The position numbers were made by a program, and so were the translations under genes. From Patescibacteria group bacterium (GTDB lineage Bacteria > Patescibacteriota > UBA1384 > 2-12-FULL-50-11): DNA of 64,000 nucleotides. Positions 26,490 through 29,400 of this stretch are shown piece after piece (positions within the stretch are counted from its first letter, which is position 1; every line of letters begins with the position of its first letter). The stretch lies in contig BOKZ01000001.1 in assembly GCA_016861245.1 (NCBI GenBank), positions 13,107 to 77,106 of the forward strand. The letters run 5' to 3'. The notes beneath the pieces were generated by a model, which worked only from the letters and a program-made list of their open reading frames with translations, was not told the DNA's origin and did no database searches.

Positions 26490-29400
26490 ATTCATGGACC
26501 TATTAGTACACCTTCGCTCAAGCCGTTACCGGCCTTACACGTAGCGCCTATCAACCGAGTGGTCTACTCGGGGTCTCATAACGAAGATTAATCTTGGGAC
26601 CTGCTTCCCGCTTAGATGCTTTCAGCGGTTATCAGTTATGATCGTAGCTACTCGACATTGCCCTTGGCAGGACAGCCGATACACCAGAGGATCATCCGCT
26701 CCGGTCTTCTCATACTAGGAGCCGCCTCCCTCAATCTTCCACGCTTACAGCAGATTAGGACCGAACTGTCTCGCGACGTTCTGAACCCAGCTCGCGTACC
26801 CTTTTAATTGGCGAACAGCCAAACCCTTGGGACCTTCTCCAGCCCCAGGATAGGATGAGCCGACATCGAGGTGCCAAACTGCGCCGTCTCTGTGGACGAT
26901 TGGGCGCAATCAGCCTGTTATCCCCGGGGTAGCTTTTATCCGTTGAGCGCCGGCCGTCTCGTTCTGAAACCGGCTGGATCACTTACGCCTGCTTTCGCAC
27001 CTGCTCGGCTTGTAGGCCTCACAGTCAAGCTCGCTTATGGGTATACCCTATCGGTACGATTTCCACCCGTACCTAGCGAACCTTTGCACGCCTCCGTTAC
27101 CTTTTAGGAGGCGACCGCCCCAGTCAAACTACCTGCCTGACACTGTCTTAGTTGTTACCAGTTAGAACCAAAATGAAACAAGGGTGGTATTTCACTGATG
27201 ACCGAAGTCTCCCACCTATGCTACACAAGTCAAACCCTGATTCAATGTCAAGCTGTAGTAAAGCTCCACGGGGTCTTTCCGTCTTGCTGCAAGTAACCGG
27301 CATCTTCACCGGTAGTGTAATTTCACCGAGTCCCTCTTTGAGACAGTTATCAAGTCGTTATGCCATTCGTGCGGGTCGGAACTTACCCGACAAGGAATTT
27401 CGCTACCATAGAACGGTTATAGTTACCGCTGCCGTTCACTCGGGCTTAAATTCAAGCCTCACCACACCGAAGTGCGGATCAGCCCTCCTCGTAACCTACG
27501 AGCACTGGGCAGGCATCAGCCCCTATACATCCCACATTGGGTTAGCAGAGACCTAAGTTTTTGTTAAACAGTCGCTTGATATTCTTTCGCTGCGGCCCGC
27601 ATTGCTGCGGGCAGGCCATATCCCTAAGTTACGGCCGCTTTTTTGCCGAGTTCCTTAAAGAGGGTTCACTCGACCACCTGAGGCTACTCGCCTCATCCAC
27701 CTGTGTCGGTTTACGGTACGGTTACCAAACATAGTTAATTTGAGAATTTTCTCGCCAGGAAGCCAACGGACGCAAAATCCAATAATCGCGTTTCGCAGAC
27801 TATCCCGTGTCTTCTCAAGGTAGTTATTTGGTAGTCACGGAATATTAACCGTGTGTCCATCGAAGTCTTACTCCTTAGGACCGACTAACCCACAGTCGAT
27901 TGGCGTTGCTGTGGAAACCTTAGATATACGGTGACCAGGGTTTTCACCTGGTTTTCGTTACTCATGCCAACATTCGCACTTCGTATCAGTCCACGGTCGC
28001 TTACGCTCCCGCTTCACCCCAATACGAACGCTCCTCTACCACTCGTGCTATACACGCTAAATACTTAGTTGACTTGGAAAATTTTGGAAGGCCTAGGACA
28101 GGACAGTGCTCCGTCCTAGGAGTGAATGCAAAGTCAACAGAACCTTATAATGAGAGATACGGCGACTAGACACAGGAGAGCTAAAATTACTATCCATCGC
28201 TCGTGTGGGTCGCCTTTAGGTATCCACGCTCCCACCACAAGGCACATGACGAAGAGCGTTAGGAGCCCGACAAGAATAATTAATTTAAGTAGCTGTAGCC
28301 ACTGATACATTACGCACCTCACAGGCAGGTTTTCTACCTTCCAAAATTTTCCAAGTAAGTATTCAAGGTGTATAGCACGAATCCTAAAATTCGGTACCTA
28401 GCTTAAGCCCCGTTACATTTTCCGCGCAAAAAGGCCTAGAGGGTTTCTACGCAACTAAGGCTTTCGCCAAAGCGTTGTAGAGAACCGTAGAATCGACTAG
28501 TGAGCTGTTACGCTTTCTTTAAATGATGGCTGCTTCTAAGCCAACATCCTAGTTGTCTACGCCTTATCACTTCGTTTTCCACTTAGCTAGAATTTAGGGA
28601 CCTTATTTGTAGGTCTGGGCTCTTTCCCTTTTGACCATGCAGCTTAGCCCGCACAGTCTGACTCTGGATTCCTAACGACGCGTATTCGGAGTTTGATAGG
28701 TGTTGAGAACTTTCGTCCCCAATGCACCTTTCAGTGCTCTACCCCGCATCATGCGAATCCAGGCTATACCTAAATATATTTCGAGGAGAACCAGCTATCT
28801 CCGGGTTCGATTGGTATTTTACCGCTTACCACAAGTCATCCCCCATTTTTGCCACAATGGTGGGTTCGGCCCTCCCTGCTAGATTTCTCTAGAGTTCAGC
28901 CTGCTCATGGCAAGATCACCCGGTTTCGGGTCTACTTTCAGCCGCTAAAAATCGCGCTATTAACACTCGCTTTCGCTTCGCGTACGGACCAAAGGCCCTT
29001 ACACTCGCGGCAAAAAGTAACTCGTTGGCTCATTCTTCAAAAGGCACGCCGTCACACGATAAATCGTGCTCCGACTCCTTGTAAGCACACGGTTTCAGGT
29101 ACTATTTCACTCCCATACTCTGGGTACTTTTCATCTTTCCCTCACGGTACTCGTTCACTATCGGTCAGATAAAGTATTTAGCCTTCCGGCACGATCACCG
29201 GACCTTCCGACTGGATTACACGTGTCCAGTCGTACTCAGGAACAAACTCCAAGTGGAATATGCGTTTTAATGTACGGGACTTTCACCCCCTATGGTGGCC
29301 TTTTCCAAGGTCCTTCCACTAACGCAACATCACTCACTCGACATACGTCTAAGTCTGCCCTATAACCCTCCTACACCAAGTCCCGGACGCAAGCAAAAAC

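Follow-up and report, generated by a model that had tools for sequence, protein, structure and literature searches.

What kind of element occupies the tip of helix 45 in the 23S ribosomal RNA (rRNA) gene of a patescibacterial contig, where sequence far longer than an ordinary hairpin loop is found? The question is raised by contig BOKZ01000001.1 (assembly GCA_016861245.1), of which a stretch of 64,000 nucleotides (positions 13,107 to 77,106), in the following called the window, was analyzed. The 23S rRNA gene was located on the minus strand at positions 26484-29743 of the window by the Rfam model LSU_rRNA_bacteria (2433.5 bits). The alignment runs from end to end (model positions 1-2925), and the gene comprises 3260 nt compared to the 2925 positions of the bacterial large subunit (LSU) model. 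According to covariance-model alignment and comparison with insert-free alleles, 336 nt at 28044-28379 (minus strand) stand in place of a helix-45 top of 13-14 nt. This insert is very probably a classical bacterial 23S rRNA intervening sequence (IVS) of the helix-45 class, and the bacterium of the candidate phyla radiation (CPR) that carries it appears to have only one rRNA gene set.

The site of the insert was determined by a sub-region run of the Rfam LSU alignment. This analysis revealed that all extra sequence lies within the loop capping the hairpin of model positions 1206-1226, which is bordered by ...ACCGAAUUUUAGGAUUCGUGC (longer stretch ...GGGGCUUAAGCUAGGUACCGAAUUUUAGGAUUCGUGC) and GCACGAGUGGUAGAGGAGCGUUC. 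Following the established secondary structure of E. coli 23S rRNA, we take these model positions to be the position of helix 45. The original prediction, made from the bare sequence, had described an insert of ~330 nt at 28047-28376 in helix 45. The alignment indeed places it inside the helix-45 terminal loop and not outside, and each predicted limit deviates from the refined one by no more than 3 nt. The exact limits 28044-28379 were taken from the comparison with two insert-free alleles (L002 and L026). Helix 45 is the site given for classical IVSs (PMC4990558).

Inverted-repeat ends of ~40 bp had also been predicted, and this agrees well with the arms that were found. One inverted repeat is formed by 28043-28071 and 28352-28380 (29 nt, 86% complementary), the other by 28072-28091 and 28337-28356 (20 nt, 100% complementary). 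Inverted repeats and fold together define a duplex with a 5' arm, in the rRNA sense, at 28337-28380 and a 3' arm at 28043-28091 (both minus strand); the latter has a 5-nt bulge and holds the perfect 20-bp run 28072-28091. In the minimum-free-energy structure the terminal stem amounts to ~41 bp with 7 bulged bases ahead of the first multiloop. The whole element folds with -141.5 kcal/mol (z = -8.25), and none of 100 shuffled sequences folded equally well; the proposed folding of the region did yield the long terminal stem. The apical 245 nt by themselves are mildly structured (z = -2.4). The duplex continues helix 45, and the insert has both the site and the complementary termini of helix-45 IVSs.

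Close relatives of the host lack the element. On contig L002, which encodes a RecO protein 97% identical to that of the window, the 23S gene is 99.9% identical to the window's over positions 1-1364 and 99.8% identical over positions 1701-3260, and only 13 nt are found where the window has 28044-28379. Likewise, L026, the GTDB species representative 'MAG: bacterium isolate DTUPAT3' (JAJTYJ01), is insert-free: its 23S gene is 99.9% identical to that of the window outside helix 45 and has a 14-nt hairpin top at this helix. A genome scan yielded three loci, all of them insert-free (3/3), and a metagenome scan with the 20-mer of the 5' flank gave only 2 loci, from a collection that evidently does not include the newer JGI samples with this species. 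Obviously, the IVS is optional and dispensable, since strains of the same species carry or lack it. The base of helix 45 reads GGAUU-CGUGC...GCACG-AGUGG in the IVS-bearing allele and GGAUU-UGCAC-UUU-GUGCA-AGUGG in the insert-free allele of L002. The basal pairs thus differ between the two classes of alleles, which indicates that the whole hairpin was exchanged and not interrupted. No target-site duplication was found at the insert junctions when the IVS and the insert-free alleles were compared. The insert-free alleles also differ from each other at this point: the tops are UGCAC-UUU-GUGCA in L002 (1426-1438) and UGCAA-UUUA-UUGCA in L026 (4899-4912), although the two 23S genes are 99.7% identical. 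Apparently, helix 45 is a hypervariable spot even without an IVS.

An open reading frame (ORF) within the insert, annotated as gene P0089, led to 14 other contigs with the insert from JGI and Logan samples. Among the sources in which the organism occurs are the JGI series Ga0613xxx (e.g. 3300072636, 3300072655 and 3300072960) and the runs DRR258782 and SRR26349714/18. In all 10 contigs listed of these 14 the insert is found at the same 23S position, with 99.4-100% identity across the insert. Consequently, the IVS-bearing allele is not an artefact, as it occurs at one 23S position in independent contigs from several studies. The haplotypes were compared upstream of the 23S gene, on the dUTPase side. 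In this region one IVS-bearing haplotype (L013, L015 and L016) shares ~98% identity with the window, and a second one (L012 and L014) ~90%. Over this flank and the adjoining 5' part of the 23S gene L012 and L014 are 97.8% and 98.8% identical, respectively, to the insert-free L026; on the flank alone the identity is estimated at ~96-98%. The identical IVS is thus found on two diverged backgrounds, one of which occurs with and without it. Such a pattern fits the exchange of rRNA segments by homologous recombination, or repeated loss. It suggests that homologous recombination, acting via the conserved rRNA on either side, spreads the IVS in the population or removes it, a route that we infer from the mismatch between insert and flanking haplotype. 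IVSs excised by RNase III have been described to replace the helix-45 tetraloop, to occur sporadically among strains and to be transferred horizontally, as is thought (PMC4990558). The distribution found here matches this sporadic occurrence and suspected horizontal transfer.

In order to place the element in its clade, 23S genes 82-88% identical to that of the window were retrieved by RecO-linked synteny and by flank-pattern scans. Inserts at helix 45 were found in L010 (~345 nt, fold z = -10), L022 (~104 nt) and L030 (~430 nt), and ordinary hairpins of 19-26 nt in L011, L025, L027 and L032. For the clade this results in a tally of four lineages with and six lineages without an insert at this helix. 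Terminal stems of 26-45 bp are present in all four inserts (window, L010, L022 and L030). The basal arms of the four show only patchy similarity, e.g. CGUG..ACAC and UGGAAAA, so that the pairing is kept through different sequences, and the interiors are unrelated.

On the basis of these features the following course of events can be proposed. The IVS would be transcribed as part of the pre-23S rRNA, and its complementary ends would extend helix 45 to a duplex of ~41 bp, an expected substrate of RNase III. The enzyme would cut out the insert and no religation would follow. Two 23S pieces of ~1.36-1.40 kb and ~1.56-1.60 kb would be left, with the lower part of helix 45 as well as tertiary and protein contacts joining them in the ribosome. 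For Coxiella, degradation of the excised RNA has been shown (PMC4990558), and the same fate is probable here. The IVS behaves as a selfish or neutral passenger. Both RNase III cleavage and fragmentation of the mature 23S rRNA are what we infer from the duplex, and some points weigh against the assignment of the insert as a classical IVS. No RNase III signature was detected in six-frame translations of the 64-kb window and of all fetched loci. Moreover, helix 45 is exposed at the ribosome surface, so that a retained extension is physically possible.

The insert might accordingly be read as an expansion segment that is retained as a long surface arm of a mature, unfragmented 23S rRNA. In favor of this reading, other expansions of the same 23S gene are conserved and so probably retained. 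However, 23S genes with 99.9% identity in this very species lack the insert, and neither its sequence nor its length is conserved among the relatives. Furthermore, the perfect 20-bp run in a 41-bp duplex is a substrate of the RNase III type, unlike the irregular stems of the conserved expansions. We therefore consider a retained segment improbable. Many rRNA insertions of CPR bacteria are self-splicing or otherwise ligated introns, and group I introns make up 45% of the CPR 23S insertions (PMC11270868). Large inserts are indeed present elsewhere in the 23S genes of the relatives, one of them (in L022) with a LAGLIDADG gene. For the window insert, in contrast, the Rfam families including the group I and group II intron models gave no intron match at gathering score in the window and no match at E<=10 within the insert; its ORF is not a homing endonuclease, and the architecture is that of a simple long terminal duplex. 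An intron is thus a very remote explanation, and it was rejected. Terminal inverted repeats are also a property of miniature inverted-repeat transposable elements (MITEs), one of which might have landed in the rRNA gene. Such an element would not explain the replacement, rather than interruption, of the native hairpin or the missing target-site duplication, and no second copy of the IVS was found elsewhere in the 64-kb window. The occurrence of the insert at one 23S position in contigs from several studies speaks against a MITE and against an assembly artefact alike. Both were rejected; together they are the least credible of all explanations.

With a classical IVS as the preferred assignment, the architecture and site originally predicted for the insert find support in its position, its duplex, the lack of an intron signature and its presence or absence among nearly identical 23S genes. 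The helix-45 IVSs of Salmonella, Yersinia, Campylobacter, Proteus and Providencia are excised by RNase III and comprise ~100-200 nt. The window IVS resembles them in its site, in the extended stem-loop that replaces the tip of helix 45, in its sporadic occurrence and in the lack of intron features. It differs from them in its greater length (336 nt), in the ORF inside, which is preceded by a Shine-Dalgarno (SD)-like motif, and in its CPR host, which probably has a single rRNA set, so that all ribosomes would be affected. Like the IVSs of Coxiella burnetii (428 nt, with an S23p ORF) and Leptospira, it is located at helix 45 of a single-copy 23S gene, measures several hundred nucleotides, has complementary ends and contains an ORF that reads in the rRNA sense (PMC4990558). 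The window IVS is shorter than the IVSs of Coxiella and Leptospira, and its ORF is not S23p / 23S_rRNA_IVP (PF05635) but would encode a hydrophobic peptide of 58 amino acids; no Pfam match was obtained for the ORF (58/62 amino acids) at E<=0.01 or E<=10. In addition, every Coxiella strain carries the IVS, while that of the window is polymorphic within a species-level population. The exceptional length attributed to the insert was therefore only partly borne out: the insert exceeds the enterobacterial IVSs in size, yet length is no distinction because the helix-45 IVS of Coxiella has 428 nt and relatives carry ~345 and ~430 nt.

Within the CPR, the closest counterparts are the non-intron insertions 23IS2 and 23IS4 (Tsurumaki et al. 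2024, PMC11270868), which were suggested to be IVSs of the RNase III type. Like the window insert they are non-intron inserts at known IVS sites in the same host group. In that survey, by contrast, most inserts are short, ORFs were annotated via Pfam domains only and no strain-level presence or absence was reported; from its text the identity of 23IS4 with helix 45 could not be confirmed (PMC11270868). In site, architecture and sporadic strain distribution the insert matches the helix-45 IVSs of enterobacteria, Campylobacter, Leptospira and Coxiella and is in this respect a fairly ordinary feature. New here are the polymorphism within a species, the mismatch with the flanking haplotypes and the recurrence of SD-led orphan ORFs in sister IVSs; only the latter could lead to something new.

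The ORF of the window IVS, MYQWLQLLKLIILVGLLTLFVMCLVVGAWIPKGDPHERWIVILALLCLVAVSLIIRFC, comprises 58 codons and is located at 28134-28310 on the minus strand, i.e. in the rRNA sense (codons 28310-28137, stop codon 28136-28134). An SD-like GAGGUG at 28315-28320 (minus strand), read from the sequence, stands 4 nt before the AUG. Two helix-like hydrophobic segments of 19 residues each (Kyte-Doolittle averages of 2.9) lie on either side of a PKGDPHER turn, and the stretch around ...GAWIPKGDPHER... is located outside these putative transmembrane segments. Between the stop codon and the 3' arm a G+C-rich hairpin (28092-28120, minus strand) is present in both the minimum-free-energy and the centroid fold. 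This hairpin fails as a terminator in the terminator scan of the IVS, and the promoter and terminator scan of the IVS gave no hit on the rRNA strand.

The IVS could thus be the vehicle of a small protein gene, and its excision would release a stem-capped mini-mRNA for a 58-residue peptide with two transmembrane segments. Such a peptide might be, for example, membrane-active or addictive, its gene would gain transcription at the rRNA level, and the proposal is compatible with excision by RNase III. Of the dinucleotide shuffles, 0.4% contain an SD motif together with an ORF as long as this one, the 3' end of the 16S rRNA bears CCUCC and the hydrophobic segments flank the turn. The same arrangement, with GGAGG and a sense ORF between the two arms, is found with unrelated ORFs in L010 (61 amino acids, p=0.008) and L030 (109 amino acids, p=0.00025), and L010 shares with the window the hairpin between ORF and 3' arm. 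Moreover, an intact copy of the L010 ORF, 84% identical to it, is present on a second rRNA contig, the sole single-nucleotide polymorphism within the window ORF is synonymous at a third codon position, and gene callers annotated the ORF. On the other hand, no homologue beyond identical copies was found in 1.84 billion representative proteins or in a set of 5.8 billion clusters. Searches of Pfam, NCBIfam and PHROG gave no significant match, and PADLOC gave a weak generic transmembrane match (E = 0.0023); for all three IVS ORFs (window, L010 and L030) nothing credible was obtained from Pfam, PHROGs, NCBIfam, PADLOC or the PDB sequences. The codon scores of the window ORF, both overall and synonymous-only, are below those of all 3000 in-frame windows sampled from host genes, and its length by itself lacks significance (p = 0.04-0.11). 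Translation of the Coxiella IVS ORF apparently does not take place in vivo (PMC4990558). An SD-preceded ORF of equal length is also present antisense in the same stretch (59 codons, 28126-28305, plus strand, AGGAG 3 nt ahead of the ATG). Probably this ORF merely shadows the sense frame, and its existence means that patterns of SD and ORF have to be read with caution here.

Since homologues are missing and codon usage is unlike that of the host, the window ORF is only a putative gene. On balance we find it doubtful that it is functional, and the proposal of the IVS as its vehicle is to the same degree unlikely. The apparent match of the ORF to P0090 (359 amino acids, E = 1.9e-5) was dismissed as hydrophobic-repeat noise, as it consists of five short stretches with 39% identity. 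A wider proposal, which we put forward tentatively and consider rather unlikely, is that the helix-45 IVSs of the clade are interchangeable gene cassettes, as those of the window, L010 and L030 each hold a different SD-led orphan ORF in an RNase III duplex. If this were true, excision would free a stem-capped mini-mRNA in each case, and the one of the window would encode its two-transmembrane peptide from the locus with the strongest transcription in the cell.

Independently of the ORF, the insert has several implications. CPR bacteria usually have a single 23S gene copy per genome (PMC11270868), so that all ribosomes of the host would carry a split 23S rRNA. If the IVS is excised, strains with every ribosome split and sister strains with intact 23S rRNA would constitute a natural experiment on the cost of fragmentation. 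The presence of the IVS on different flanking haplotypes provides sequence-level support for lateral exchange of rRNA segments in a CPR population. Finally, binning based on rRNA, the design of primers and LSU phylogeny can all be disturbed by the length of 3260 nt that the gene reaches through the insert and the further expansions.

One of these expansions is located in domain I, where additional sequence had been predicted as well. It turned out to be real: a 110-nt hairpin (29368-29477, minus strand) stands at a short model hairpin (model positions ~274-300) and contains 94 nt compared to 6 nt in the consensus, and an 11-nt insert follows just downstream. The hairpin folds with z = -8.5. 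Its sequence is kept in L010, L022, L030 and L032, with 15 pairs showing compensatory changes. Sequence conservation and covariation in relatives with 82-88% identical 23S genes identify this hairpin as a clade-specific expansion segment and not as an IVS; a second IVS in domain I was rejected accordingly. Another expansion of ~50 nt with a GAAA-capped hairpin is located just 3' of the helix-44 hairpin, between GUCGA and GGCCUUUUUGCGCGG (28437-28492, minus strand). The order there, in the GTPase-associated region, is GCGUAACAGCUCACUAGUCGA, insert, GGCCUUUUUGCGCGG. The fold of 28437-28492 alone is not significant (z = -1.3), and the relatives align through the expansion. The GTPase-associated region is an unusual place for extra rRNA.

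Other variable sites were observed in the 23S genes of the clade. At the short hairpin that follows helix 9 (model positions 151-178) the window has ~17 nt (29576-29592, 23S positions 152-168), and inserts are present in L010 (144-505, ~363 nt), L022 (3219-3330, ~112 nt), L030 (2785-3079, ~296 nt) and L027 (~6344-6466, ~80 nt). These inserts are possibly additional elements of the IVS type. In domains IV to VI, the relatives carry inserts of 370-920 nt, none of which is present in the window 23S gene. They are located in L011 (1072-1775 and 2417-3292), L022 (6093-6879), L030 (5633-6555 and 6829-7575), L027 (3107-3993) and L025 (4689-5054). The large insert of L022 holds a LAGLIDADG_1 gene, and the large inserts are presumably group I introns as known from CPR bacteria (PMC11270868).

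The host is an uncultured Patescibacteria (CPR) bacterium that probably has a single rRNA gene set. Homologues of the window RecO carry the names Berkelbacteria, Saccharimonadales or Patescibacteria. The Rfam scan of the window revealed one 23S, one 5S (25927-26044, adjoining the 23S gene) and one 16S gene (45274-46725), all on the minus strand. Genes near the rRNA genes include a dcw/mur cluster, MraZ, GlyRS, alanine racemase, RecO, a type IV pilin-like protein, dUTPase and Fpg; an exact look-up of the GlyRS gave no record. The 16S gene is unlinked: a distance of 15.5 kb with protein-coding ORFs separates it from the 23S-5S pair, which lies downstream. In relatives, protein genes and no 16S gene were likewise found upstream of the 23S gene (dUTPase and Fpg in L030, Fpg in L022 and L032), and the unlinked arrangement therefore seems to be conserved in the clade. 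The gene for tRNA-Ile(GAU) is located on the opposite strand directly past the 3' end of the 16S gene (45066-45140), and tRNA-Ala(UGC) stands apart at 39580-39653. The 16S gene comprises only 1452 nt, though it spans the full model of 1533 positions, which fits the reduced rRNA reported for CPR bacteria.

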